Shown: piece by piece, positions 1,293 through 28,690 of the stretch | How positions within the stretch are numbered: the stretch's first letter is position 1 | How the letters are laid out: every line of letters begins with the position of its first letter | DNA from: Enterobacteria phage IME177 | Strand: one strand, 5' to 3' | Sequence record: MZ398247.1 | Length of the DNA stretch: 39,224 nt | The notes under the pieces: model-generated | The model's database searches: none | What the model was told of the DNA's origin: nothing | Seen by the model: only the letters and a program-made list of their open reading frames with translations | Position numbers and translations under genes: made by a program

Positions 1293-3824
1293 ATGTCCAC
1301 GATTACACAATTCCCTACAGGAAACACTCAGTACAGGATTGAGTTCGACTACCTAGCCAGAACGTTTGTTGTTGTTACGCTGGTGAATAGCTCTAACCCT
1401 ACCCTGAACCGTGTACTGGAAGTTGGTCGAGATTACCGATTCCTTAATCCAACGATGGTTGAGATGTTGGTTGACCAATCAGGTTTCGACATCGTTCGCA
1501 TTCACCGTCAGACTGGAACTGACTTAGTGGTAGACTTCAGGAATGGCTCAGTGTTGACAGCTAGTGACCTGACCAATTCAGAGCTTCAGGCTATCCATAT
1601 TGCAGAAGAAGGTCGAGACCAAACGGTTGACTTAGCGAAGGAATATGCCGATGCTGCTGGTAGCTCTGCTGGCAACGCTAAGGATAGCGAGGACGAAGCA
1701 CGCCGAATCGCTGCGAGTATCAGGGAAGCTGGTCTAATTGGCTATATTACCCGTCGCTCCTTCGAGAAAGGCTACAACGTTACAACATGGAGCGAGGTCC
1801 TGCTATGGGAAGAGGATGGTGATTATTACCGCTGGGATGGTACGCTTCCAAAGAGTGTTCCTGCTGGTTCAACTCCTGAAACTTCCGGTGGGATTGGATT
1901 AGGTGCGTGGGTTAGTGTTGGTGATGCTGCTTTAAGAAGTCAGATTTCAAACCCGGAAGGGGCAATACTCTACCCGGAATTGCAGATGGCAAGATGGCGT
2001 GATGAGGGTGATGTTCGAGGCTGGGGTGCTAAAGGGGATGGTGTAACAGATAGTACGGAGAATATAGCCGCTTCACTAAATTCTCAAAAAGCTGTCGTAG
2101 CATCAGAAGGTGTATTCTCTAGTTCTGGTATTAATAGTGATTACTGTAACTTAGACGGTAGAGGCAGTGGGGTGCTAAGTCACCGTTCCAGTACAGGTAA
2201 CTACTTAGTATTTAACAATCCACGTACAGGTCGCTTAAGTAATATTACGGTAGAAAGTAATAAGGCGACGGATACCACTCAGGGACAGCAGGTATCTCTT
2301 GCTGGTGGCAGTGATGTTACGGTAAGTGACGTTAACTTCTCAAACGTTAAAGGTACTGGTTTCAGTTTAATCGCATACCCTAATGATGCGCCACCTGATG
2401 GGCTTATGATTAAAGGCATTCGAGGTAGCTATTCCGGCTATGCCACTAATAAGGCGGCTGGATGCGTACTTGCTGACTCCTCAGTTAACTCCCTCATAGA
2501 TAACGTCATTGCTAAGAACTACCCTCAGTTCGGAGCTGTAGAGCTGAAAGGTACAGCCAGTTACAACATAGTTAGTAATGTTATAGGGACAGATTGCCAG
2601 CATGTAACCTACAACGGTACTGAAGGGTCAATAGCTCCTTCTAATAACCTTATCAAGGGGGTAGTTGCTAATAATCCTAAATATGCAGCGGTTGTTGCAG
2701 GCAAAGGTAGTACCAACTTAATCTCCGATGTGCTTGTAGATTTCTCAACCTCTGATGCTAGGCAGGCTCATGGTGTTACAGTAGAAGGTCCTGATAACGT
2801 CATAAATAATGTGCTTATGTCAGGGTGTGATGGTACTAACTCTTTAGGGCAAGCTCAAACTGCTACAATTGCACGCTTTATAGATACAGCTAATAACAAC
2901 TATGCGTCTGTATTTCCTAGCTACAGTGCTACAGGTGTTATTACTTTCGAATCAGGTTCTACCCGTAACTTCGTAGAGGTAAAGCATCCGGGAAGGAGAA
3001 ACGACCTTCTCAGTGCTACTGGTACTATTAGCGGTGCAGATACTATTGACGGCACTAATAATAGCAACGTAGTGCACGCCCCTGCATTAGGGCAGTACAT
3101 AGGCAGTATGTCCGGTAGGTTCGAATGGCGGATTAAGTCCATGTCACTTCCATCAGGGGTTCTTACCTCTGCGGATAAGTACAGGATGCTTGCCGATGGG
3201 GCTGTGTCATTAGCTGTAGGCGGAGGTACTTCTTCTCAAGTACGCCTGTTCACTTCTGACGGCACTTATAGGAATATATCACTTACTAGCGGTAACGTGC
3301 GTCTTCCTACCAGTAGCACAGGTTATTTGCAGTTAGGTTCTAATGCAATGACCCCAGATAGTACTAATACATACGCATTAGGTTCCGCAAGTCGAGCATG
3401 GTCTGGCGGTTTTACTCAATCAGCATTCACTGTTGTCTCAGATGCTAGGGATAAAACAGAGCCTCTTAATATCTCAGATGCTTTACTGGATGCTTGGTCT
3501 GAAGTTGACTTTGTGCAGTTTCAGTACTTGGACCGAATTGAGGAGAAGGGTGCAGACTCAGCTAGATGGCACTTCGGCATCATCGCTCAGCGAGCTAAGG
3601 AGGCCTTCGAACGTCACGGTATAGATGCACACCGCTATGGCTTCCTGTGCTTCGACAGTTGGGATGATGTATACGAGGAAGATGCCAATGGCTCTCGTAA
3701 ACTGATTACACCAGCAGGTTCCCGCTACGGTATTCGTTACGAGGAAGTACTGATATTAGAGGCTGCGTTGATGCGGCGTACTATTAAGCGTATGCAGGAA
3801 GCATTAGCTGTTATGTCTAAGTGA
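1293..3824 (+). CDS. gp17: tail fibre / tailspike protein: T7 gp17-like N-terminal anchor + pectate-lyase-3-like beta-helix domain + C-terminal intramolecular chaperone (peptidase S74-like) domain
   Basis: 843-aa ORF with RBS aaaggagg. N-terminus (EFDYLARTFVVVTL...HIAEEGRD) resembles T7 gp17 N-terminal domain; WGAKGDGVTDSTENIAASL is the hallmark start of pectate-lyase-3 beta-helix domains; C-terminus carries SDARDK...RWHFGIIAQRAKEAF, the pattern of self-cleaving chaperone domains of phage tailspikes. Confidence 0.88.
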   Translation: MSTITQFPTGNTQYRIEFDYLARTFVVVTLVNSSNPTLNRVLEVGRDYRFLNPTMVEMLVDQSGFDIVRIHRQTGTDLVVDFRNGSVLTASDLTNSELQAIHIAEEGRDQTVDLAKEYADAAGSSAGNAKDSEDEARRIAASIREAGLIGYITRRSFEKGYNVTTWSEVLLWEEDGDYYRWDGTLPKSVPAGSTPETSGGIGLGAWVSVGDAALRSQISNPEGAILYPELQMARWRDEGDVRGWGAKGDGVTDSTENIAASLNSQKAVVASEGVFSSSGINSDYCNLDGRGSGVLSHRSSTGNYLVFNNPRTGRLSNITVESNKATDTTQGQQVSLAGGSDVTVSDVNFSNVKGTGFSLIAYPNDAPPDGLMIKGIRGSYSGYATNKAAGCVLADSSVNSLIDNVIAKNYPQFGAVELKGTASYNIVSNVIGTDCQHVTYNGTEGSIAPSNNLIKGVVANNPKYAAVVAGKGSTNLISDVLVDFSTSDARQAHGVTVEGPDNVINNVLMSGCDGTNSLGQAQTATIARFIDTANNNYASVFPSYSATGVITFESGSTRNFVEVKHPGRRNDLLSATGTISGADTIDGTNNSNVVHAPALGQYIGSMSGRFEWRIKSMSLPSGVLTSADKYRMLADGAVSLAVGGGTSSQVRLFTSDGTYRNISLTSGNVRLPTSSTGYLQLGSNAMTPDSTNTYALGSASRAWSGGFTQSAFTVVSDARDKTEPLNISDALLDAWSEVDFVQFQYLDRIEEKGADSARWHFGIIAQRAKEAFERHGIDAHRYGFLCFDSWDDVYEEDANGSRKLITPAGSRYGIRYEEVLILEAALMRRTIKRMQEALAVMSK

Positions 3825-4383: not shown

Positions 4384-4387
4384 GTGT

Positions 4388-4437
4388 TAGACTCAAGGTC
4401 ATTACTGTATGTAGTGGCCTTTATGGTTAACACTAAC
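4388..4437 (+). promoter_or_regulatory. conserved hairpin element, candidate RNase III processing site (copy 1 of 3)
   Basis: tagactcaaggtcattactgtatgtagtggcctttatggttaacactaac; AAGGUCA pairs with UGGCCUU; near-identical copies at 12871-12920 and 20265-20312. Confidence 0.5.
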
Positions 4438-4484
4438 TAGTGGAGGCGACTCTACGTGAAATCTGATAAACCGGGAGGGCAACT

Positions 4485-6772: not shown

Positions 6773-6795
6773 ACTTAACTATCACTATAGGGAAG
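6773..6795 (+). promoter_or_regulatory. phage RNA polymerase promoter (phiOR-like), predicted +1 at 6790
   Basis: acttaactatcactatagggaag downstream of the large terminase gene, the position of T7 phiOR. Confidence 0.8.
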
Positions 6796-6854
6796 ACCCC
6801 CGGTTACTTATAGTATTACTGTAGTGAATATACATATGCAGACTTTATGCAAGA

Positions 6855-6931
6855 CCTTAGGAGGCAGACTCCGAGTTCTTACCTAAGGCTTGCACCGATG
6901 GAAGGAGGGTGATATTAATCATAATCCCTCC
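6855..6931 (+). promoter_or_regulatory. two hairpins downstream of phiOR-like promoter (7-bp IR ccttagg/cctaagg; 6-bp IR ggaggg/ccctcc around a palindromic AT-rich loop)
   Basis: Inverted repeats 6855-6861/6882-6888 and 6904-6909/6926-6931 read directly from the sequence; region corresponds to the T7 right-end packaging/junction region. Confidence 0.4.
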
Positions 6932-6975
6932 AATACAGATAGTCACCGACCATAGATACAGGAGGTATGTAGCAT

Positions 6976-7134
6976 ATGGCAAAGACCAAAGCTGTACTTA
7001 AAGCTCTGGCGACCAATCGAGCTACATACAGGTTTCTTGCTGCTGTTCTACTTGCTGCTGGCGTTACTGCTGGAAGTAAGTGGGTCGGGTGGGTCGAGAC
7101 TCTCGTATGTTCTCTGGTGTCTCAGTGTAATTAA
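6976..7134 (+). CDS. small hydrophobic protein (gp19.5-position ORF)
   Basis: 52-codon ORF with strong RBS caggagg 8 nt upstream; hydrophobic core LAAVLLAAGVTAG; last ORF before the genome-end region. Below the 60-aa cutoff of the ORF track. Confidence 0.45.
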   Translation: MAKTKAVLKALATNRATYRFLAAVLLAAGVTAGSKWVGWVETLVCSLVSQCN

Positions 7135-7167
7135 CGCAATCATGGTAACGATTCATGAGCGGAAGAC

Positions 7168-7210
7168 CTAAGGTCAGTACGTGGATAAAGACTCACTCTA
7201 CTGACCTTAG
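7168..7210 (+). promoter_or_regulatory. perfect 12-bp inverted repeat (ctaaggtcagta / tactgaccttag) with 19-nt loop
   Basis: Read directly; lies in non-coding DNA between the last late gene and the putative terminal repeat. Confidence 0.4.
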
Positions 7211-7372
7211 CTACTGTAGTCAAGGACTTTAGGTAACACCTTAATAGAAGCTCACCTAGGGTCATCCTACTTATTGGTCTATCCTAGTGTCGCCTGACCT
7301 ACGGTCCTTGACCTACAGTAGCTGCCACCTACGGTCACTCGATGAGTTTTGGACCAAAAGTTTGAGACCACA

Positions 7373-7590
7373 TCTCACAGTTCAAGAACCTCAAGTCTCC
7401 CCATAGGCCCTCTTTAAGTCCAGACCAAAGGCCCTACCCGTTACTGCTCCTTGCAGTCACAGCCAGTCTATCATAAGGTTAGACCGATGGTCAAGACGTT
7501 AGGTCAACTATAGGTCTAGGCTATGGCTGGAGGTCAGGACGATAGGTAGGGACTATGGGTCTGTCTCTGAGTCTCTATCTGTATAACCAT
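7373..7590 (+). repeat. probable direct terminal repeat / physical genome end region (single copy in this permuted assembly); boundaries approximate
   Basis: tctcacagttcaagaacctcaagtctccccatagg resembles the T7 left end (TCTCACAGTGTACGGACCTAAAGTTCCCCCATAGGGGG as recalled); flanked on both sides by ACCTAC(A/G)GT short repeats, as the T7 terminal repeat is flanked by CCTAAAG-type repeats. Confidence 0.4.
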
Positions 7591-7593
7591 AGG

Positions 7594-7623
7594 TCCTACA
7601 ACCTACAGTCCTACAACCTACAG
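7594..7623 (+). repeat. perfect tandem direct repeat, 15 bp x 2 (tcctacaacctacag), part of an array of ACCTAC(A/G)GT motifs (also 7305-7345, 7630-7670)
   Basis: Exact repeat read from the sequence; at least 7 copies of the core motif between 7305 and 7670. Confidence 0.7.
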
Positions 7624-7794
7624 TCTAACTAACCTACAGTATCAACCATAAGACACCAACACCTACGGTCATAGACCCACAGTTAATAGACACAAAGCTA
7701 TAGACTTGAGGTCAACGACATGTTAGTCAAAGACTATATCCTATTACACCATGGGGCCGACGATAGCTTAATCAATATTATTTAAGATTACCTA

Positions 7795-7823
7795 TTGACT
7801 ACAGGTCCAGACTATGGCTTAAT
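7795..7823 (+). promoter_or_regulatory. sigma70-type early promoter (A1-like): -35 TTGACT, 17-bp spacer, -10 CTTAAT
   Basis: ttgactacaggtccagactatggcttaat parallels T7 A1 (TTGACTtaaagtctaacctatagGATACT as recalled); downstream leader resembles the T7 A1-A2 interval. Confidence 0.45.
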
Positions 7824-7935
7824 AGCTTCCGTCAACACGACACGGCAACAACCGGATAGTGAAGACGCCGGGTCATCCCGGTTAAGTAGACAGCCTGATA
7901 AGTCATACGAACAACAGGCAGATGACAGAAAGTAG

Positions 7936-7965
7936 TTGACAAGATGTACCGACTTAAAGTAGTAT
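7936..7965 (+). promoter_or_regulatory. sigma70-type early promoter (A2/A3-like): -35 TTGACA, -10 TAGTAT
   Basis: ttgacaagatgtaccgacttaaagtagtatgtaccac parallels T7 A3 (TTGACAacatgaagtaaacacggTACGATgtaccac as recalled). Confidence 0.55.
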
Positions 7966-8173
7966 GTACCACATCAACACGAAACAACGGTGACGACCAA
8001 CACTGAAACGGTCTACCTGAAGTCCTCTGACTGAAGGGAATGCTCTTTAACAATCTGGATAAACTCTTAATGTGCGCCGACAGTGATTAACTACAGGGTC
8101 TTTGAGTCTACATCTGAAGGCCCTGACTGATAGTCACTAACATACACACAATTAACTTTGAGAGGATATAACT

Positions 8174-8677
8174 ATGGAACGTAACGCTAACGCATACTAT
8201 GAGCTGCTGGCTGCAACCGTTGAGGCATTTATCGAGCGTATTCAGTACGACCACCTGACTAAAGATGATGACTACAGCGATGCGCTGCATGAGGTCGTAG
8301 ACAGTCAGGTCCCGCTCTATTACCACGAGATTTTCACGGTGATGGCTGCTGATGGTATAGACCACGAGTTCGAAGACTCTGGGCTGATGCCTGAAACCAA
8401 GGACGTAACGCGTATCCTACAAGCTCGCATCTATGAGGCACTTTATAACGACGTGTCTAATAGCTTGGATGTAGTCTGGTTTGAGGATGAAGAGGCAGAC
8501 GAAGAGGATGAATATTGGGTAGTTGACGCTAAAACAGGCGCAATAATTGTGCAAGCTGTAGCTCTTGAGGTCGCTACTGCATGTGCCAAGGTCAACTATG
8601 TGATAGGTCGCCACCTGAAGGTGGAAGACATCAATGATAACGTAGTGTTCGACCCTGCGGCTGAGGACTGCGAGTGA
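8174..8677 (+). CDS. gp0.3: Ocr-like anti-restriction DNA-mimic protein (gp0.3-like) with an extra ~50-aa C-terminal extension
   Basis: 167 aa, first gene after the early promoters; [44 protein letters not shown] matches the core of T7 Ocr as recalled; highly acidic; T7 Ocr is 117 aa. Confidence 0.8.
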
Positions 8678-8893
8678 TGATAACTTACGGTTTATGCCAG
8701 CACCACGTCACCAACGCCCGGATTTTGGTCAAGACCGGGCGGTTAAACCACGAGGAGGCCATGCGTCTCTTGAAAGTGGTCTACAGGAGGCGCAAGCGCA
8801 TACACGACAGCCTACACGCTGAGTGATAAACGAGAGGTCATCTGACTGATAGGTGGCCTCAAAGATTATCACTTACATTGATAGGAGTTAACT

Positions 8894-8998
8894 ATGAGCA
8901 CTGCAATCATCTGGACTATCTCAGGCTTCGTAGCGTGGGGAATGTTTACTCTAGTCTGCAAACTACCGGTCCTTACTCAACTGTTATGGGGCTTATGA
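8894..8998 (+). CDS. small hydrophobic early protein (34 aa)
   Basis: ATG preceded by RBS ggag; sequence MSTAIIWTISGFVAWGMFTLVCKLPVLTQLLWGL is membrane-like; stop overlaps next start (ATGA). Not in ORF track because <60 aa. Confidence 0.4.
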   Translation: MSTAIIWTISGFVAWGMFTLVCKLPVLTQLLWGL

Positions 8999-9198
8999 CT
9001 ATGAGTATCGCACTATTGATAGCCATAGGCTATGGACTTATCGCCTACGTGCTGGTGAGAGACATCAACAAAGCGCGTAAAGTCTACAAATTAAACTATG
9101 TACGTCTGGGTCGCTGGACTGTACGTCAACCTAACGGACGATTCCTGCGCAATTTAGCGAACGTCTGGGATATAGCAACTCTTGGGAGCAAACTGTAA
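8995..9198 (+). CDS. small early membrane protein (67 aa)
   Basis: In-frame ATG of track ORF 8878-9198; TM segment SIALLIAIGYGLIAYVLV followed by basic tail; translationally coupled to flanking ORFs. Confidence 0.45.
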   Translation: MTMSIALLIAIGYGLIAYVLVRDINKARKVYKLNYVRLGRWTVRQPNGRFLRNLANVWDIATLGSKL

Positions 9199-9524
9199 TG
9201 AACAAGTCATACGGGATTAATCTGGTACACTCTATGGACGCAGAAATGAACATGTTAAGCCTACTGGCTACCGGGTATCGTCACGGAACGTCAAGTCACA
9301 CCGCACGTCAACAGCAGGAGCGGGACCGTGTACTACAGGCGCGACTCCGGGCAGAGGGCCATAAGTCCGAACTGATGTGTCTGGCGTATGGTGGACGACC
9401 AATCACCGACGATGGTAAACTTCTGGTATCAGGCTGGAAGGCGATAGACCAACGGTCAACCATCAAGCACACGACTCACGGTGACTTCAGCCATCTCCAC
9501 GCTAACCCACTGATATGCAAGTGA
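9198..9524 (+). CDS. hypothetical early protein (108 aa) at the position of T7 gene 0.7; no kinase motifs
   Basis: ORF starts with TAATG overlap of upstream stop; last gene before the RNA polymerase gene; no similarity recognised. Confidence 0.5.
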   Translation: MNKSYGINLVHSMDAEMNMLSLLATGYRHGTSSHTARQQQERDRVLQARLRAEGHKSELMCLAYGGRPITDDGKLLVSGWKAIDQRSTIKHTTHGDFSHLHANPLICK

Positions 9525-9529
9525 TTATG

Positions 9530-9552
9530 ACTTAACTATCACTATAGGACTC
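9530..9552 (+). promoter_or_regulatory. phage RNA polymerase promoter directly upstream of the RNA polymerase gene, predicted +1 at 9547
   Basis: cttaactatcactataggactca; 75 nt upstream of the gene 1 start codon. Confidence 0.75.
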
Positions 9553-9621
9553 AAGGTCTAAGACTCCAAGTGAAAGACCAAAGAGACTTTAAGTGAAAGA
9601 CTAATAACAAGGACTTTAAGT

Positions 9622-12303
9622 ATGAGCGTCATCTCTATTGATAAACACGACTTCTCTGATGTGTCGAACGCCATTGAGCCGTTTAACCTGCTGGCCGACC
9701 ACTACGGGCAAGACCTTGCAGTCAAACAGCTTCAGCTTGAGCATGAGGCATATACAGAAGGCGAGCGACGTTTCATCAAGAACCTTGAGCGCCAGACCGA
9801 GCGCGGGGAACTGGCAGACAATCAGGTCGCCAAGCCTTTGATGCAGACTCTGGTCCCTAAGATTGCGCAAGCCGTCAGGGAGTGGCACGAAGGCCTAGAC
9901 GGGAAGCTGTCAACCTCGCGTCCTAGCGTAGCGTTCACCATGTTGAGCACTGAAGAGAAGGCCGTAAAGGACCGCTCTATGCGCATCTCCTGTGAGTCCG
10001 CTGCGGTTATCATACTGAAGGTCATACTCTCCAAGCTGGTCAAGCCTGAAGGGATACCGATTACACCGATGGCCTCCGCGATAGGTCGCACACTTGAGGA
10101 CGAAATCCGCTTCGGTCGCATCCGTGACAAAGAGAAGGAGCACTTCAAGAAGGCGATAGCTGAGAACCTGAACAAGCGAGCTGGGGCATCCTACAAGAAA
10201 GCCTACATGCAAGCGGTCGAGGCGTCCATGCTGGAGCAAGGCCAACTGGAAGATGCATGGGGGACTTGGAGTCCTACAGAGGCTGTCCACGTTGGCATCA
10301 AGATGCTCGAGATTGTCATCCAGTCAACACAACTGGTCGAGCTTAAGCGGTACGGTGCTGGTAATGCAGCGGCTGACGTAGAGATGGTCCACCTGTCAGA
10401 CTTCTGGGTCAAGAAGATGGCACAACGAGGATTCAGCCTTGCGGGTATCGCTCCAGTCTACCAGCCTTGCGTCGTTCCGCCTAAGCCGTGGACTGGTGTC
10501 GTAGGTGGTGGGTACTGGGCCAAAGGTCGCAGACCGTTACCATTGATTCGCTTAGGGTCTAAGTCTGCGGTAGCACGTTATGAAGACGTATACATGCCTG
10601 AAGTCTATGACGCTGTGAACATCATTCAGAATACACCTTGGAAAGTTAACAAGAAGGTATTGGACGTGGTGAACATGGTCGAGAAGCTGAACAACACGCC
10701 TATTGATGACATCCCTCAGATGGAACCGCTGAAGCCTGAGGACTATGCTGGTGAAACCGAGGAGGAACTCAAGGCATGGAAGAAGGCTGCTGCTGGTATC
10801 TATCGCCGCGAGAAGGCCAGACAGTCACGCAGATTGTCCATGAGTTTCATCGTATCACAGGCCAACAAGTTCTCACAGTTTAAGGCCATCTGGTTCCCGT
10901 ACAACATGGATTGGCGAGGTCGTGTCTACGCTGTCCCGATGTTCAACCCTCAGGGTAACGACATGCAGAAGGGTCTACTGACTCTGGCGGTCGGAAAGCC
11001 TATCGGGGCGGATGGTTTCAAATGGCTTAAAGTCCACACCGCCAACTGCGCGGGTGTCGATAAGGTAACCTTTGAGGAGCGTATCAAATGGGTGGAAGAC
11101 AATCACGAGAACATTCTGGCAGCAGCCAAATCACCGATGGACAGCATCGAGTGGTGGGGGAGTATGGACAGCCCCTTCTGCTTCCTAGCGGCTTGCTTCG
11201 AGTATTCTGGGGTGATGAACCATGGCTTGACCTACAATTGCTCACTTCCGATTGCCTTCGACGGCTCGTGTTCGGGGATTCAGCACTTCAGCGCGATGCT
11301 GAGGGACCACGTAGGCGGACATGCAGTGAACTTAACGCCGTCTGGTCAGGTGCAGGACATCTACCGTATAGTCTCAGACCGTGTGTCAGACCAGTTGAAA
11401 GAGCTATTACTGAGCGGTACGGACGACGAGCTGGTGACCGTAGAGGACAAGAAGACTGGGGAAATCAGCGAACGCCTGAAGCTTGGGACCAAGAGTCTTG
11501 CGCGTCAGTGGCTGCAATTCGGTATGTCTCGCTCGGTCACTAAGCGCTCGGTCATGACTCTGGCCTACGGGTCGAAAGAGTATGGGTTCGCCGACCAAGT
11601 GTTCGAAGACACCGTGATGCCAGCGATTGACTCCGGTAAGGGAGCAATGTTCACCGAGCCAAGCCAAGCGTCTCGCTTCATGGCTAAGATGATTTGGGAA
11701 GCTGTGAGTGTGACAGTAGTTGCTGCGGTTGACGCGATGAAGTGGCTTCAAGGTGCCGCCAAGCTGCTGGCTGCTGAAGTGAAGGACAAGAAGACTGGTG
11801 AAATCCTGAAGCCATGCCTTCCGGTACACTGGGTCACACCTGATGGGTTCCCGGTCTGGCAGGAATACCGCAAGAAGGATACCACTCGTCTGAACCTGAT
11901 GTTCTTAGGGTCCTTCAACCTTCAACCTACGGTCAACAAAGGTACGAAGAAAGAGCTGGACAAGCACAAGCAGGAGTCAGGCATTAGCCCGAACTTCGTC
12001 CACTCACAAGATGGTAGCCACCTCCGCAAGACTGTAGTCCACACTCACCGAAAGTATGGCGTGATGTCATTCGCAGTGATTCACGATAGCTTCGGGACCA
12101 TCCCGGCTGACGCTGAGTATCTGTTCCGTGGCGTCCGTGAGACGATGGTAGAGACTTACCGCGATAACGATGTGCTGCTTGACTTCTACGAGCAGTTTGA
12201 ATACCAGCTTCATGAAAGTCAGCGCGACAAGTTGCCTGAGCTTCCGAAGAAAGGTAAACTGAATATCGAAGACATCTTGTCTTCAGACTTTGCATTCGCT
12301 TAA
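9622..12303 (+). CDS. gp1: single-subunit DNA-directed RNA polymerase (T7 gp1-like)
   Basis: 893 aa; colinear with T7 RNAP as recalled, including catalytic-Asp motifs AFDGSCSGIQHFSAMLRD and VIHDSFGTIPADA, specificity-loop region LNLMFLGSFNLQPTVNKGTK, C-terminal FAFA. Confidence 0.97.
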   Translation: MSVISIDKHDFSDVSNAIEPFNLLADHYGQDLAVKQLQLEHEAYTEGERRFIKNLERQTERGELADNQVAKPLMQTLVPKIAQAVREWHEGLDGKLSTSRPSVAFTMLSTEEKAVKDRSMRISCESAAVIILKVILSKLVKPEGIPITPMASAIGRTLEDEIRFGRIRDKEKEHFKKAIAENLNKRAGASYKKAYMQAVEASMLEQGQLEDAWGTWSPTEAVHVGIKMLEIVIQSTQLVELKRYGAGNAAADVEMVHLSDFWVKKMAQRGFSLAGIAPVYQPCVVPPKPWTGVVGGGYWAKGRRPLPLIRLGSKSAVARYEDVYMPEVYDAVNIIQNTPWKVNKKVLDVVNMVEKLNNTPIDDIPQMEPLKPEDYAGETEEELKAWKKAAAGIYRREKARQSRRLSMSFIVSQANKFSQFKAIWFPYNMDWRGRVYAVPMFNPQGNDMQKGLLTLAVGKPIGADGFKWLKVHTANCAGVDKVTFEERIKWVEDNHENILAAAKSPMDSIEWWGSMDSPFCFLAACFEYSGVMNHGLTYNCSLPIAFDGSCSGIQHFSAMLRDHVGGHAVNLTPSGQVQDIYRIVSDRVSDQLKELLLSGTDDELVTVEDKKTGEISERLKLGTKSLARQWLQFGMSRSVTKRSVMTLAYGSKEYGFADQVFEDTVMPAIDSGKGAMFTEPSQASRFMAKMIWEAVSVTVVAAVDAMKWLQGAAKLLAAEVKDKKTGEILKPCLPVHWVTPDGFPVWQEYRKKDTTRLNLMFLGSFNLQPTVNKGTKKELDKHKQESGISPNFVHSQDGSHLRKTVVHTHRKYGVMSFAVIHDSFGTIPADAEYLFRGVRETMVETYRDNDVLLDFYEQFEYQLHESQRDKLPELPKKGKLNIEDILSSDFAFA

Positions 12304-12318
12304 CAGGAGGAGAAGTAT

Positions 12319-12549
12319 ATGTCAATGAAACTTGTAGCACACAACAGGACATACAACGATGGGTCGGGACGTTGCCATGTAGAGCTGACTTATAGGGATT
12401 TAGTCATTCTCCGAGACAGATTACAAGCGGGTGTGACTGGGTGGATTCAACCTAACGAGTACAGCCTTATAGCTTCGATTGATGAAGTGCTTAACGCGTG
12501 GATGGAAGACGAGCGCACTCAGTATCCGTCACTCCCTATAATTAGATAA
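12319..12549 (+). CDS. hypothetical protein (76 aa)
   Basis: ORF with RBS caggagg; immediately after gene 1; no recognisable motif. Confidence 0.5.
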   Translation: MSMKLVAHNRTYNDGSGRCHVELTYRDLVILRDRLQAGVTGWIQPNEYSLIASIDEVLNAWMEDERTQYPSLPIIR

Positions 12550-12849: not shown

Positions 12850-12872
12850 CCTAAACTATCACTATAGGATTA
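12850..12872 (+). promoter_or_regulatory. phage RNA polymerase promoter (phi1.1-like), predicted +1 at 12867
   Basis: cctaaactatcactataggatta. Confidence 0.8.
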
Positions 12873-12920
12873 GACTCAAGGTCATGACTCAAAGTCGTGG
12901 CCTTCATGATTAACCCTAAC
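12871..12920 (+). promoter_or_regulatory. conserved hairpin element, candidate RNase III processing site (copy 2 of 3)
   Basis: tagactcaaggtcatgactcaaagtcgtggccttcatgattaaccctaac; same motif as 4388-4437 and 20265-20312. Confidence 0.5.
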
Positions 12921-12942
12921 TCATTCAATCAGGAGCTACACC

Positions 12943-13125: not shown

Positions 13126-13374
13126 ATGAGCAGACGTTGGGTATTTGATGCGTCCACCAGCCAGTGGTCATCGTTAGGCCGGACACACCGCGAGCTGCGT
13201 GAGGCAGGACTTGAGGTCAGAATGGATGTCCTGCCGTGCTCCGGAAAGACTCTGGTCCTAATCATTGAAGCAGACGGGAAGCCTCTGGTATCCCGCGAGT
13301 TCACCGAACACGAAATCTTTAGCTGTGAGCAATGGTGCTTGCAACAACTGAATGCTTATAGGAGCTGGAAATAA
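13126..13374 (+). CDS. gp1.2-like protein (82 aa)
   Basis: Position between gp1.1 and ligase; size and C-terminal ...SWK similar to T7 gp1.2 (...DWK); weak similarity only. Confidence 0.5.
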   Translation: MSRRWVFDASTSQWSSLGRTHRELREAGLEVRMDVLPCSGKTLVLIIEADGKPLVSREFTEHEIFSCEQWCLQQLNAYRSWK

Positions 13375-14449
13375 TGACTACGACTATTAAAACTAACCCG
13401 CACCGCGCTGTAGATTACTCTGAGTCTGGCGTTAAGAAGGCTTTGGAAGCTGCCGGGTCGCTGGAAGCTGAAGTGAAGTATGACGGTGTGCGTATAAACA
13501 TCCCGGTCTTCCCTACTGGTGAGACCCAATGGTTGAGCCGTGAGTCTAAACCTCTCCCAGCCCTTGAGTGGCTGTCAGTCCTTACCAACATCGACAACAT
13601 CGTCAGGGACCAGCAAAAAGCTAGCGACTGGCGGTGGTTCCTGAAGCAGGCTGGCTACGAAGGCACTGGTCTGATGATTGACGGTGAGGTCATGGTAAAA
13701 GGAGTGGACTTCAATACGTCTTCAGGTCTAGTCCGTACCATGTGGTCAGACACTAAGAACTACGCTTGGAATGGCAACCCAGATGCTGACATCGACACCA
13801 AGAAGAAGCATAAGGTCCCTTTCCATCTGGCAACCGACTACATACGCGTGGTTGTCTACGGTATCGTGGACCTTAACGTCATCCTTGACCCGAAATCCGA
13901 GGTCCTATTCATAGCGTCACACGCCTGAAGGCCGAAGCTATCGTCCCTCTCCTCCAGAAATACTTCCCGGAAATCGACTGGGTTCTGTCTGAGTCACACA
14001 CGGTCTATGACCTTGAGTCGCTCAACTCCCTGTACGAACAGAAGCGTCTGGAAGGACACGAGGGTCTGGTAGTCAAGGACCCGCTTGGTAAATATAAGCG
14101 TGGCAAGAAGTCTGGCATGTGGAAAATGAAGCCTGAGGAGACCATCGACGGGACCGTGTGTGGCCTCGTGTGGGGGACTCCGGGTAAGGCCAACGAAGGT
14201 AAGGTGATTGGCTTTGAGGTTCTGCTTGAGGATGGCATGGTGGTTAACGCCTGTGGTCTGACTGAAGAACAGAAGGATGAGTTTACGGAAGCCTGTAACA
14301 CTGATACATATATTCTCGGTGGAATCAATCCATACGAAGGCTGGCAGTGTGAAGTCCTCTTCATGGAGCGCTTCCCTGATGGTTCCCTTCGTCACCCTAG
14401 CTTCAAGTGCTGGCGCGGGACGGAAGACAATCCAACCGTTAAGAGTTAA
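13374..14449 (+). pseudogene. gp1.3: ATP-dependent DNA ligase (gp1.3-like) with reading frame interrupted: N-terminal ORF 13374-13928 and C-terminal part in the -1 frame (open 13889-14449)
   Basis: N-part has ligase motif I EVKYDGVR and is colinear with T7 ligase; C-part (...PLLQKYFPEIDW...EGHEGLVVKDP...GSLRHPSFKCWRGTEDNP) continues the alignment in another frame. Adding one base near 13924-13926 (cc run) restores a ~370-aa ORF. Confidence 0.8.
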
Positions 14450-14458
14450 CTAAATGTC

Positions 14459-14493
14459 AACCCAGTGGTCTTCGGACTGCTGGGTTTCTTTGC
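14459..14493 (+). terminator. rho-independent terminator (TE-like, early terminator after ligase)
   Basis: aacccagtggtcttcggactgctgggtttctttgc: GC stem with UUCG loop followed by U-rich tract; T7 TE is also directly after gene 1.3. Confidence 0.65.
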
Positions 14494-15675: not shown

Positions 15676-15795
15676 ATGAACCAAGACCAGATTAACTTTG
15701 TGTGTCAGCTTATTAAGGAGTTCGTGGACTTCACTGATTTATCCGAAGAGGAACTTGTTAAGCTGGAAGAGATTCTCGACAAGGAGATTTTATGA
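15676..15795 (+). CDS. small acidic protein (39 aa); start uncertain (track ORF begins 15598)
   Basis: ATG with RBS ggag 9 nt upstream; stop overlaps gp2 start (ATGA). Confidence 0.35.
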
Positions 15796-15950
15796 CTGAG
15801 GTTGAGAAGAAGTACATCGTGGAGCTTGAGGGACGCGTTCAGTCCTTCGAGGTTCCGTTGTACGCAAAGTCTCTTGAAGAGGCTACCCTGAAGTCCCAAG
15901 AGTATGAGGACGCTGGTTTTGTGGTCGGTCGGATTCGTCCTGAGACCTAA
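15792..15950 (+). CDS. gp2: host RNA polymerase inhibitor (gp2-like)
   Basis: 52-aa ORF below track cutoff; [14 protein letters not shown]...[10 protein letters not shown] resembles T7 Gp2 (SFEVPIYAETLDEA...GFEVTRVRP as recalled); position before SSB. Confidence 0.65.
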
Positions 15951-17158: not shown

Positions 17159-17628
17159 TGACTCAGAAATATAGACTTAAGGTTAGTTGCTACGGGTGGC
17201 CTAAAGGTACTATCGTTACGAAATGTGAGAAAGACCCTGCACCAATATTCGGACTTACTCTGGTGGAATCCACTGAGCGTGGCAAATACAAACACGGAGC
17301 AGCAGGTTATAACACTCAGCCTGATGGTATGTGGGGGGCGTGGGTTGTAAACGAAAATCTTGAGGAAATCGTAGAGGATAAACCTCAAGTCCTGCCAGCC
17401 TCAAGCGTCCCTCCCGTCACCGTTAAACGTGAAGTCCTGACCATCAACAAGATTGGTGTAGGTCAGACGTTCATCGTCCACGGTAAGCCTGACGAAGTGT
17501 ACGTGAAGATTAGTAACTCTCACGTCTTCAACCATAAGTTGCTCCAGATGCACACGACTGACGCACATCGCTTCCAGTCACATCTGAATCTAGTGGTCGT
17601 AGAATTGGTGGTGTACAATGGTAAGTAA
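17158..17628 (+). CDS. hypothetical protein (156 aa), accessory ORF between endonuclease I and lysozyme
   Basis: ATG overlapping gp3 stop (TGATG), RBS aaaggag; no T7 gene occupies this position; no motif recognised. Confidence 0.6.
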   Translation: MTQKYRLKVSCYGWPKGTIVTKCEKDPAPIFGLTLVESTERGKYKHGAAGYNTQPDGMWGAWVVNENLEEIVEDKPQVLPASSVPPVTVKREVLTINKIGVGQTFIVHGKPDEVYVKISNSHVFNHKLLQMHTTDAHRFQSHLNLVVVELVVYNGK

Positions 17629-18076
17629 GGTACAGTTCAACCCACGGTCCCGGACTGACGCTATCTTCGTTCACTGTTCGGCTACCAAGCCAGATATGGA
17701 CATCGGGGTAGAGACCATCCGTATGTGGCACAAGCAGCAAGGATGGCTGGACGTAGGCTACCACTTTATCATCAAACGTGATGGCACTGTGGAAGAGGGT
17801 CGCCCGGTCAATGTCGTAGGGTCACACGTTAAGGACTGGAACTCCAAGTCCGTAGGCGTCTGCCTTGTAGGTGGAATTGACGCTAAGGGCAAGTTTGAAG
17901 CTAACTTCACTCCGGCCCAGATGAACTCACTGCGCAACAAGCTGGCTGACCTGAAGGCCCTGTATCCTCAGGCAGAAATAAAAGCACACCATGATGTAGC
18001 ACCTAAGGCGTGTCCAAGTTTCGACTTGCAGCGCTGGCTATCTACCAATGAACTGGTAACTTCCGACCGTGGTTAA
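17618..18076 (+). CDS. gp3.5: N-acetylmuramoyl-L-alanine amidase / lysozyme (gp3.5-like)
   Basis: 152 aa; DAIFVHCSATKP...WLDVGYHFIIKRDGTVEEGR...KAHHDVAPKACPSFDL...ELVTSDRG nearly colinear with T7 lysozyme as recalled. Confidence 0.95.
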   Translation: MVSKVQFNPRSRTDAIFVHCSATKPDMDIGVETIRMWHKQQGWLDVGYHFIIKRDGTVEEGRPVNVVGSHVKDWNSKSVGVCLVGGIDAKGKFEANFTPAQMNSLRNKLADLKALYPQAEIKAHHDVAPKACPSFDLQRWLSTNELVTSDRG

Positions 18077-20096: not shown

Positions 20097-20261
20097 TTGC
20101 TAAGAAAACTTAAAGCTCGCTACCATCGGTTCATGTACAAATGGTGGAGTGATGAAGCAACCTGCCTGTCCAACATTCTGGGAGACCAGAGGTTCGACTC
20201 TAAGGCATGGAAGAAAGCTAACCGGAAGTTTATGTATCACTTCTTGCGTACAGACTTCTAG
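20097..20261 (+). CDS. small basic protein; start uncertain (TTG 20097 after aggagg, or ATG 20133)
   Basis: In-frame with track ORF 20064-20261; RBS aggagg at 20085-20090. Confidence 0.35.
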   Translation: MLRKLKARYHRFMYKWWSDEATCLSNILGDQRFDSKAWKKANRKFMYHFLRTDF

Positions 20262-20264
20262 GTC

Positions 20265-20312
20265 TAGACTCAAGGTCATTCACATCGAGTGGCCTTTATG
20301 ATTAGACTAAAC
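20265..20312 (+). promoter_or_regulatory. conserved hairpin element, candidate RNase III processing site (copy 3 of 3)
   Basis: tagactcaaggtcattcacatcgagtggcctttatgattagactaaac; 15 nt upstream of the DNA polymerase start. Confidence 0.5.
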
Positions 20313-20326
20313 GCGGAGGATTAACC

Positions 20327-24765: not shown

Positions 24766-24826
24766 TTAGGACCTAAGATATGACTATAAGATAGACTTTA
24801 GTCTTAACTTAAAGAGGAGATTCAAG

Positions 24827-26005: not shown

Positions 26006-27574
26006 ATGGCTGAACGTGAAGGGTTCGCTGCTGAAGGAGCCAAAGCGGTCTATGACCGACTGAAGAACGGTAGACAGCCATATGAGACACGCGCTCAGAA
26101 CTGTGCTGCTGTCACTATCCCGTCACTGTTTCCTAAGGAGTCCGACAACTCGTCTACTGAGTACACAACTCCGTGGCAAGCTGTAGGTGCTCGCTGTTTG
26201 AACAACTTGGCTGCAAAGCTGATGTTGGCATTATTTCCCCAGTCACCGTGGATGCGACTGACAGTCTCCGAATATGAGGCCAAGACCTTGAGTCAGGACT
26301 CAGAGGCTGCTGCTCGTGTTGACGAAGGGCTGGCTATGGTCGAGCGTGTGTTGATGGCCTACATGGAGACCAACAGTTTCCGTGTGCCATTGTTCGAAGC
26401 TCTGAAGCAGCTTATCGTCTCCGGTAACTGTCTGCTTTACATTCCAGAGCCTGAACAGGGTACTTACAGTCCTATGCGAATGTACCGCTTAGTGTCCTAC
26501 GTTGTTCAACGTGATGCTTTCGGTAATATCTTGCAGATTGTGACTCTCGACAAGGTAGCGTTTAGTGCTCTACCGGAAGACGTTAAGTCACAACTCAACG
26601 CAGACGACTATGAGCCTGACACAGAGCTGGAAGTATATACGCACATCTACCGTCAAGACGACGAGTATCTACGTTATGAGGAAGTGGAAGGCATTGAGGT
26701 AGCAGGGACCGAGGGTTCTTACCCACTGACTGCATGTCCATACATCCCGGTACGAATGGTTCGACTGGATGGTGAAGACTATGGTCGTTCTTACTGCGAG
26801 GAGTATCTGGGAGACCTGAACTCGCTGGAGACGATTACAGAAGCTATCACCAAAATGGCTAAGGTAGCCTCCAAGGTGGTGGGCCTCGTTAACCCGAACG
26901 GTATCACGCAACCTCGTCGTCTGAACAAGGCGGCTACAGGTGAGTTCGTTGCCGGTCGCGTTGAGGACATCAACTTCCTGCAACTGACTAAGGGTCAGGA
27001 CTTTACGATTGCCAAGTCGGTGGCTGATGCTATCGAGCAACGTTTAGGCTGGGCCTTCCTTCTTAATAGTGCTGTTCAGCGTAATGCCGAGCGAGTCACT
27101 GCTGAAGAGATTCGTTATGTTGCTGGAGAACTGGAGGCGACCTTAGGTGGCGTGTACTCAGTACAATCCCAAGAGCTTCAGTTACCTATCGTCCGTGTGC
27201 TTATGAACCAGCTTCAGTCTGCTGGCATGATTCCTGACCTTCCGAAAGAAGCGGTAGAGCCTACGGTATCCACTGGTCTGGAAGCGTTAGGTCGTGGTCA
27301 AGACTTAGAGAAGCTGACTCAGGCAGTCAACATGATGACCGGGCTACAGCCTCTGCAACAGGACCCAGACATTAACTTGCCGACCCTGAAGCTGCGACTG
27401 CTGAATGCCTTAGGCATTGATACTGCTGGCCTTCTGCTGACTCAGGACGAGAAGATGCAACGTATGGCTGAACAGTCCGCTCAAGGAGCTGTGGTCAACG
27501 GTGCGTCTGCTGCTGGTGCTAACATGGGCGCTACTGTTGGACAAGTAGCTGGTGAGGACATGGCTCAAGCCTAA
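26006..27574 (+). CDS. gp8: head-to-tail connector (portal) protein (gp8-like)
   Basis: 522 aa; YETRAQNCA, TPWQAVGAR, YRLVSYVVQRDAFGN, GLVNPNGITQPRRL, RVTAEEIRYVAGELE colinear with T7 gp8 as recalled. Confidence 0.96.
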   Translation: MAEREGFAAEGAKAVYDRLKNGRQPYETRAQNCAAVTIPSLFPKESDNSSTEYTTPWQAVGARCLNNLAAKLMLALFPQSPWMRLTVSEYEAKTLSQDSEAAARVDEGLAMVERVLMAYMETNSFRVPLFEALKQLIVSGNCLLYIPEPEQGTYSPMRMYRLVSYVVQRDAFGNILQIVTLDKVAFSALPEDVKSQLNADDYEPDTELEVYTHIYRQDDEYLRYEEVEGIEVAGTEGSYPLTACPYIPVRMVRLDGEDYGRSYCEEYLGDLNSLETITEAITKMAKVASKVVGLVNPNGITQPRRLNKAATGEFVAGRVEDINFLQLTKGQDFTIAKSVADAIEQRLGWAFLLNSAVQRNAERVTAEEIRYVAGELEATLGGVYSVQSQELQLPIVRVLMNQLQSAGMIPDLPKEAVEPTVSTGLEALGRGQDLEKLTQAVNMMTGLQPLQQDPDINLPTLKLRLLNALGIDTAGLLLTQDEKMQRMAEQSAQGAVVNGASAAGANMGATVGQVAGEDMAQA

Positions 27575-28588: not shown

Positions 28589-28690
28589 CCAAGATACAGA
28601 CTCAAGGTTCCCCTATTACTTCAGTCCATACGGATTGGGCGTAAAGCAAGTAATAAACTTTATCTTTCAATTGAATAGGAGAATTATCAT

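Follow-up and report, generated by a model that had tools for sequence, protein, structure and literature searches.

The closest described counterparts of the locus studied here are found in Kayfunavirus. In the curated record of EcoDS1 (NC_011042), a feature labelled 'regulatory, promoter, phi' lies at 2244-2266, directly ahead of gene 1, the phage RNA polymerase gene, which starts at 2336. K1F has the same site at 2474-2496. Both sites come right after gp0.38, 70 to 75 nt before gene 1, and both are followed by the same leader. A promoter annotation upstream of gene 1 is absent from both K1F records and from the feature table of the Ro45lw paper. For Sparklingdew, 18-bp CTWAACTATCACTATAGG repeats have been reported, one of them at the 3' end of SPD_007, and the next number, SPD_008, is the polymerase gene (PMC13298934). 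The papers on Kvp1, Citrobacter SH1-5, UAB_Phi and phi15 are silent on promoters upstream of gene 1, and no transcript mapping for a Kayfunavirus was found in the literature searched. In phiA318, a phage promoter is predicted before the kinase and RNA polymerase genes, and 'autoregulation' has been suggested (PMC4099482).

The window, by which we mean the whole 39,224-nucleotide stretch analysed (Enterobacteria phage IME177, MZ398247.1), carries such a site. The 3.6 kb round its gene 1 promoter is 99.1% identical to Escherichia phage vB_EcoP-R1 (over 8800-12400) and 92 to 98% identical to many Kayfunavirus (K1F-like, Studiervirinae) genomes. Judged by these identities, the window is a further isolate of the genus, alongside K1F and EcoDS1. 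Its large ORFs are all on the plus strand. The tail fibre and terminase genes stand ahead of the early region, and the genome is therefore circularly permuted in the window. The first nucleotide of both K1F and EcoDS1 aligns to position ~7373, which puts the start of gene 1 ~2.25 kb from the physical left end, a distance similar to that in K1F (gene 1 at 2566) and EcoDS1 (2336). Both the physical ends and the terminal repeat are internal to the window, located after the right-end promoter (6790) and before the early genes.

The promoter in front of gene 1

A consensus promoter for the phage polymerase lies between the upstream ORF and the gene 1 ATG, in the same orientation as the genes (Table 1). 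The stop codon of the ORF, a TGA at 9522-9524, is 6 nt ahead of the promoter, and 9527-9558 reads g ACTTAACTATCACTATAGGACTC aaggtc. The initial annotation had placed a consensus promoter 75 nt upstream of gene 1, with +1 at 9547. These coordinates are right. A weight matrix spanning -17 to +6 finds exactly 11 sites in the window, at 31 to 37.5 bits, and the next best match has 15 bits. Scored with a matrix built without it, the gene 1 promoter reaches 31.6 bits, and the range of the other sites is 25.2 to 36.2. The 18-mer core TTAACTATCACTATAGGA has 10 matches in the window at up to 3 mismatches, all on the plus strand, versus 0.03 expected. The gene 1 promoter is confirmed, far above chance. 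It is identical to the right-end promoter (6790) from -20 to +2. The initial transcribed sequence at 9547 is GGACTC, and a GGA start is found in 6 of the 11 window promoters. Elsewhere, a weak promoter-like site (15 bits) occurs at 24789, 29 nt downstream of the strong 24760 promoter, amid GACTTTAGG/GACTATAAG repeats.

Table 1. Positions of features in the window, with two reference hairpins from other phages (bottom)
Feature	Position	Strand	Basis or details
Complete RNase III-type hairpin	4384-4438	+	-22.0 kcal/mol, z -4.8
Candidate host (sigma-70) early promoter	7795-7831	+	Homologue of the host promoter annotated in EcoDS1 at 469-505, 3 mismatches
Candidate host early promoter, TTGACA-18-TAGTAT	7936-7974	+	10/12 consensus; homologue of EcoDS1 609-647, 8 mismatches in 39 nt
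Upstream early gene, gp0.38-like	9198-9524	+	phrog_7066; K1F and EcoDS1 records name it 0.38
Phage RNA polymerase promoter, -17 to +6, ACTTAACTATCACTATAGGACTC	9530-9552	+	Exact consensus, matrix score, EcoDS1 annotation
Gene 1 leader segment, folded	9542-9596		-10.0 kcal/mol, z -0.22; 82 of 200 shuffles fold equally well
Predicted transcription start, +1 G	9547	+	Position within consensus
Predicted leader of phage-polymerase transcript, 75 nt	9547-9621	+	Without significant structure
GACTCAAGGTC, 5' arm of RNase III-type hairpin motif without 3' partner	9548-9558	+	Likely vestige
Shine-Dalgarno-like AAGGA, 8 nt ahead of gene 1 ATG	9609-9613	+	Sequence; within invariant block AAGGACTTTAAGTATG
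Gene 1, single-subunit RNA polymerase, 893 aa	9622-12303	+	Identity to K1F, Ro45lw and T7 RNAP
Next phage promoter, following gene 1 and corresponding to T7 phi1.1A	12850-12872	+	Consensus and matrix
Complete RNase III-type hairpin after the 12850-12872 promoter	12867-12921	+	-17.7 kcal/mol, z -3.5
Intrinsic-terminator-like hairpin after ligase region, corresponding to T7 TE, the host-polymerase terminator	14459-14486	+	12-bp stem, then T-rich tail
gp2-like inhibitor of host RNA polymerase	15792-15950	+	phrog_1307, E 6.5e-23
gp3.5-like amidase/lysozyme	17618-18076	+	phrog_822, E 4.6e-81
Complete RNase III-type hairpin	20261-20315	+	-19.1 kcal/mol, z -4.5
Phage promoters, +1 of all 11	1241, 6790, 9547, 12867, 14549, 15963, 18329, 24760, 27587, 28583, 33129	+	Weight matrix
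T7 R1 hairpin			-20.2 kcal/mol, z -4.4
Berlin equivalent hairpin			-13.9 kcal/mol, z -4.3

By its sequence, the site belongs to the promoters of the T7 group of phage RNA polymerases, in the K1F specificity class, with initiation predicted at 9547. The polymerase of the window is 95% identical to that of K1F, 93% to that of Ro45lw and 64% to that of T7. Its specificity-loop sequence (WVTPDGFPVWQEYRKKDTTRLNLMFLGSFNLQPTVNKG...) equals that of K1F and differs from that of Ro45lw at two positions only, which we read as non-contact positions. A 2025 biochemical study showed that the Ro45lw polymerase transcribes in vitro from ACTTAACTATCACTATAGGGA, a 21-mer that constitutes the minimal promoter, and that +1 is a G, as mapped from sequenced transcript 5' ends (PMC12272871). 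The window site shares 19 of these 21 bases, the two differences being at +3 and +4; the start tested in vitro was GGGA, whereas that of the window promoter is GGACTC. K1F polymerase/promoter pairs also work as orthogonal expression parts (PMC12218169). Given the near-identity of polymerase and loop, the in vitro data for Ro45lw and the K1F expression parts, the predicted recognition of the gene 1 site by the phage enzyme is well grounded. We infer its use in vivo, and its strength, at 9547.

The promoter is shared across the genus. Relatives were retrieved with the N-terminal 250 residues of the polymerase, which makes the sampling independent of the promoter; this yielded 20 IMG/VR loci, to which K1F and Cronobacter phage Dev2 were added. 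All 22 relatives, K1F included, have the promoter at the same position. A 126-nt promoter-plus-leader query matched 218 phage records, each at a coverage of at least 80%, and the N-terminus of the polymerase is at least 90% identical to that of the window in about 206 records. Taken together, these three counts make the promoter essentially genus-wide. It is a fixed Kayfunavirus feature and no peculiarity of this genome. Enterobacter phage 03_vB_Eclo_IJM, a candidate intermediate relative (79% identity), was set aside for its heavily frameshifted assembly. Among records carrying the promoter plus leader are MT350292.1 (Enterococcus phage EFA-1, 96.8% identity) and OR786095.1 (Staphylococcus phage MBBL139, 79.9%); either these host labels look wrong or the isolates look contaminated.

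Variability was tabulated for 23 aligned sequences, and each segment was compared with the promoter by Fisher test. Only 3 of the 23 promoter columns (-17 to +6) vary, versus 6 of 8 in the spacer after the upstream stop codon (p = 0.003) and 35 of 76 in the leader (p = 0.006). As far as the alignment indicates, the gene 1 promoter is under purifying selection. Its excess of conservation over the adjacent gene 1 coding sequence was not significant with 23 sequences (80 of the first 300 nt variable, p = 0.2). The block AAGGACTTTAAGTATG near the end of the leader is invariant across the 23 genomes.

Two leader types exist in the genus. Group A, with TATAGG, includes the window, K1F and EcoDS1. 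Group B, with TAAAGG, includes Ro45lw, Dev2 and others. Its promoter has a T-to-A change at -2 (CACTAAAGG) and lies ~90 nt upstream of gene 1, and its leader has diverged and is longer by 6 nt. Among the group B genomes examined, the change is confined to the gene 1 promoter, and the next downstream promoter has TATAGG. In Dev2, it is found in 0 of the 11 other promoters. The variant may be an attenuated, or tuned-down, self-amplifying promoter.

A phage promoter ahead of gene 1 had been put forward in the initial annotation as a departure from T7. The comparison with relatives found the arrangement to be standard in all sampled Kayfunavirus. Since it is present in all close relatives and is annotated in EcoDS1, the claim to novelty fails. 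The EcoDS1 site is an identical 23-mer, and there is no difference of substance between the gene 1 promoters of EcoDS1 or K1F and that of the window. A gene-1-proximal promoter is already known from the EcoDS1 record, and among other Autographiviridae feedback has been proposed in LUZ100 and autoregulation suggested for phiA318.

Early transcription and a proposed self-amplifying polymerase gene

The initial annotation had argued from T7, stating that there the first phage promoter comes after gene 1. That part does not hold, because T7 phiOL is at 405 and gene 1 at 3171; what does hold is that T7 has no phage promoter close to gene 1. In the outgroups, the region ahead of gene 1 was scanned for words with further same-strand copies elsewhere, such words being taken as the phage's own promoter. 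The scan covered 400 to 700 nt upstream of gene 1, and 117 nt in Erwinia phage pEp_SNUABM_10, whose record starts there. Within this region, no phage promoter was found in T7, in Berlin and 285P (Berlinvirus), in fPS-53 (Helsettvirus, with annotated promoters), in SH1 (Teetrevirus), in IME205 and cp31 (Przondovirus), in Ayanbimpe (Apdecimavirus), in JSF37 (Chatterjeevirus) or in pEp_SNUABM_10. In most of these phages, an RNase III-type hairpin occupies that place. Left-end phage promoters were located in T7 (phiOL, 405), Berlin (569), fPS-53 (536-558), SH1 (386), IME205 (439) and cp31 (414). No phiOL-type promoter near the left end was found in the window (7373-9530), K1F (1-2478) or Dev2 (1-2380), and from the left end to gene 1 no site scores above 7 bits in the matrix (window 6800-9530; K1F 1-2478). 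In the absence of a phiOL-type site, Kayfunavirus has its leftmost phage promoter at gene 1, and this is also the leftmost of the 11 on the physical map of the window.

Two candidate host promoters lie near the left end (Table 1), in a window where the sigma-70 scan overall was no richer than shuffled sequence (8 found versus 8.5 expected). Neither a terminator-like site nor a significant hairpin was found between +1 (9547) and the gene 1 ATG, and no terminator-like site was found on the plus strand from the early region to 13966. The DNA ligase gene (1.3), which precedes the terminator-like hairpin, is split over two frames, with an N-terminal part at 13374-13928 (184 aa) and a C-terminal part at 14117-14449 (110 aa). 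Continuous translation of 13374-14449 meets stops from codon 185 on, and the ligase is intact in K1F and EcoDS1. The split ligase is a frameshifted pseudogene, unless it stems from a sequencing error.

We consider it likely that the phage polymerase uses the gene 1 site as a functioning promoter ahead of its own gene, and that the site drives self-amplified polymerase synthesis. Host RNA polymerase would start at the sigma-70-type promoters ~420 to 560 bp from the left end. Its read-through of the early genes into gene 1 would give the first polymerase molecules, and this would be the ignition route. The first polymerase would then bind 9530-9552, start at the G at 9547, and carry transcription through gene 1 into the genes that follow. 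Polymerase synthesis would thereby amplify itself and would go on after gp2 silences the host enzyme. In T7, the gp3.5 lysozyme binds and damps the phage polymerase, and the gp3.5 homologue of the window would presumably damp the loop in the same way. Self-amplification, which the initial annotation had also proposed, is predicted as the most likely function because the promoter is a consensus promoter on the correct strand, no terminator or strong hairpin separates it from gene 1, and it appears to be under purifying selection.

A more far-reaching version goes with the -2 variant. In it, Kayfunavirus would have replaced an ancestral phiOL plus R1 layout by a promoter fused to a remnant of R1, self-amplification would be obligatory and tuned, and the T-to-A change would be a natural down-tuning. 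We hold this only tentatively and think it rather doubtful. If true, comparing the two -2 variants would amount to a natural experiment on the degree of positive feedback that a T7-type phage can tolerate.

The gene 1 leader and alternative readings

The transcript predicted from 9547 would begin with a sequence found at other sites. Exact copies of GACTCAAGGTC on the plus strand are at 4390, 9548, 12873 and 20267, and at up to one mismatch there are 15 matches versus 1.1 expected. The initial annotation had noted that the leader begins with a hairpin motif seen at 4388, 12871 and 20265, and the exact copies bear this out. At the three other sites both arms are present (GACUCAAGGUCA...GUGGCCUUUAUGRUUA), and the hairpins are like T7 R sites. 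The first 7.5 kb of the EcoDS1 record, which include the homologue of the 12867 site, carry no annotation for any of the three. Exact minus-strand copies of GACTCAAGGTC at 14009-14019 and 26284-26294 are within coding regions and may be due to chance. A fourth, partial hairpin motif, GACTCAAGGTT, is at 28599, after the gene 10 promoter.

It had been suggested from this motif that the leader may carry a processing site. The start of the leader would then be cut by RNase III (or another enzyme) and control the stability or translation of gene 1 mRNA, a reading that draws on the presence of GACTCAAGGTC in three well-folded hairpins of the window, on the RNase III-type hairpins just upstream of gene 1 in T7, Berlin, fPS-53, SH1 and others, and on a small interrupted stem that can be drawn in the leader (CUC..GGUCU..ACU/AGU..AGACC..GAG). 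However, only one of the two conserved arms (GACUCAAGGUC ... GUGGCCUUUAUGAUU) is present, the 3' arm GUGGCCUUUAUGAUU being missing, and the leader folds at -10 kcal/mol with z -0.22, against z -3.5 to -4.8 for the window sites and T7 R1. A fold of 9547-9640 (whole leader plus 19 nt of coding sequence) gave no significant structure (z +0.78), and no stable ~50-nt hairpin with upper stem, internal loop and lower stem was found in the leader. An alignment fold over both leader types has a consensus energy of -6.4 kcal/mol and only a 4-bp stem. The 5-bp GGUCU/AGACC stem of group A (GGTCT/AGACC in the DNA) is absent from group B leaders, so that no stem is conserved between the types, and a scan of the whole window against Rfam gave no family at gathering score. 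The minimum-energy fold of the Ro45lw leader pairs ACUCAAGGUC with GGACUUUAAGU (z -2.1), a pairing that the minimum-energy fold of the window does not have; both blocks are invariant, which leaves no covariation signal possible. With only a 5' arm, and a fold no better than that of shuffled sequence, the processing site is unsupported, and we regard it as very improbable. GACTCAAGGTC in the gene 1 leader is probably not an active processing site. Most likely, we infer, the first 12 nt of the leader are what is left of the R1 site of an ancestor, or of a cassette of promoter plus hairpin such as that at 12850-12921, because the motif (A)CTCAAGG(T/C)C of the 5' arm in the window leader also occurs in the fPS-53, Titus and Berlin hairpins, which have the same map position. 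T7 R1, between genes 0.7 and 1, has the same map position as well, but it folds well and the window leader does not.

Two further readings concern the promoter itself. It may be functional and yet be selected for something other than self-amplification, as a take-over point for the middle genes or as a stand-in for phiOL, with the extra gene 1 mRNA a by-product. Transcripts from 9547 would also feed all downstream middle genes, and self-amplification therefore need not be the selected function. In T7, phiOL is linked to replication or concatemer processing. A phiOL substitute would fit the lack of a phiOL-type promoter to the left of gene 1 in Kayfunavirus, the presence of a promoter near the left end in genera without a gene-1-proximal one (T7, Berlin, fPS-53, SH1, IME205 and cp31 are the cases), and the identity of the gene 1 site with the right-end promoter at 6790 from -20 to +2. 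Against this, the promoter is 75 nt from gene 1 and ~2.2 kb from the left end, the middle genes are already served by the 12850-12872 promoter, and every transcript from 9547 would include gene 1 with its ribosome-binding site, so that self-amplification would follow anyway. We judge another selected role unlikely. Less likely still is that the site is a weak or silent copy, left by recombination of promoter/RNase III-site cassettes and kept by descent. Such an origin would suit the resemblance of the promoter-plus-GACTCAAGGTC module to the 12850-12921 cassette after gene 1, and the -2 variant in one subgroup; the overall similarity of close relatives also makes conservation alone weak evidence. 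But the promoter is less variable than the flanking spacer and leader, across two diverged leader types, and the full consensus is kept in 218 records. The same layout, moreover, is found in Pseudomonas genera, in SP6 (~1.3 kb upstream) and, from transcriptomics, in LUZ100.

Comparison with other phages

A self-driven polymerase gene, the reading we prefer for the window, has natural parallels. In gh-1 (Ghunavirus, Pseudomonas), the annotated 'phi1' at 939-961 lies ~100 nt upstream of the RNA polymerase gene (1058) and downstream of host promoters. Luke-2 and PSV6 (Pseudomonas) have the same layout, with a phage promoter ~100 nt upstream of gene 1. These three differ from the window in having another consensus (TAAAAACCCTCACTGTGGC) and a promoter-like site near the left end. 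The phage promoter is ~600 nt upstream of gene 1 in Titus and ~1.3 kb upstream in SP6.

In LUZ100, an ONT-cappable-seq study placed phi1 directly upstream of the polymerase gene and proposed a positive-feedback loop (PMC10134795). The likeness to the window is in the promoter directly ahead of the polymerase gene and in the order of events, with host read-through giving the first polymerase, which drives its own gene (PMC10134795). Unlike the window, LUZ100 is a distant, temperate-like phage for whose loop gating by a MarR-type repressor has been proposed, whereas the window has no such repressor and its promoter is known from sequence.

For the window itself, the result matters little beyond correct annotation. 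The textbook layout of T7, in which gene 1 is transcribed from host promoters only, is not general for T7-like phages, and K1F-like and gh-1-like phages would have a natural self-driven polymerase gene. This may be of interest for modelling the timing of T7-type expression and for the use of K1F-type polymerases as orthogonal expression parts.

The nearest experimental parallels come from T7. In the T7 autogene engineered by Dubendorff and Studier in 1991, the polymerase gene was placed behind its cognate promoter, reportedly with auto-amplification as the outcome. One element of an autogene, a cognate promoter upstream, on the same strand, with no terminator between, is found at gene 1 of the window. 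A further paper describes auto-amplification in rearranged T7 genomes when gene 1 directly follows a T7 promoter (PMC3737178, citing Endy et al. 2000). The autogene and the rearranged genomes are artificial constructs, whereas the arrangement in Kayfunavirus is natural and fixed in the genus.
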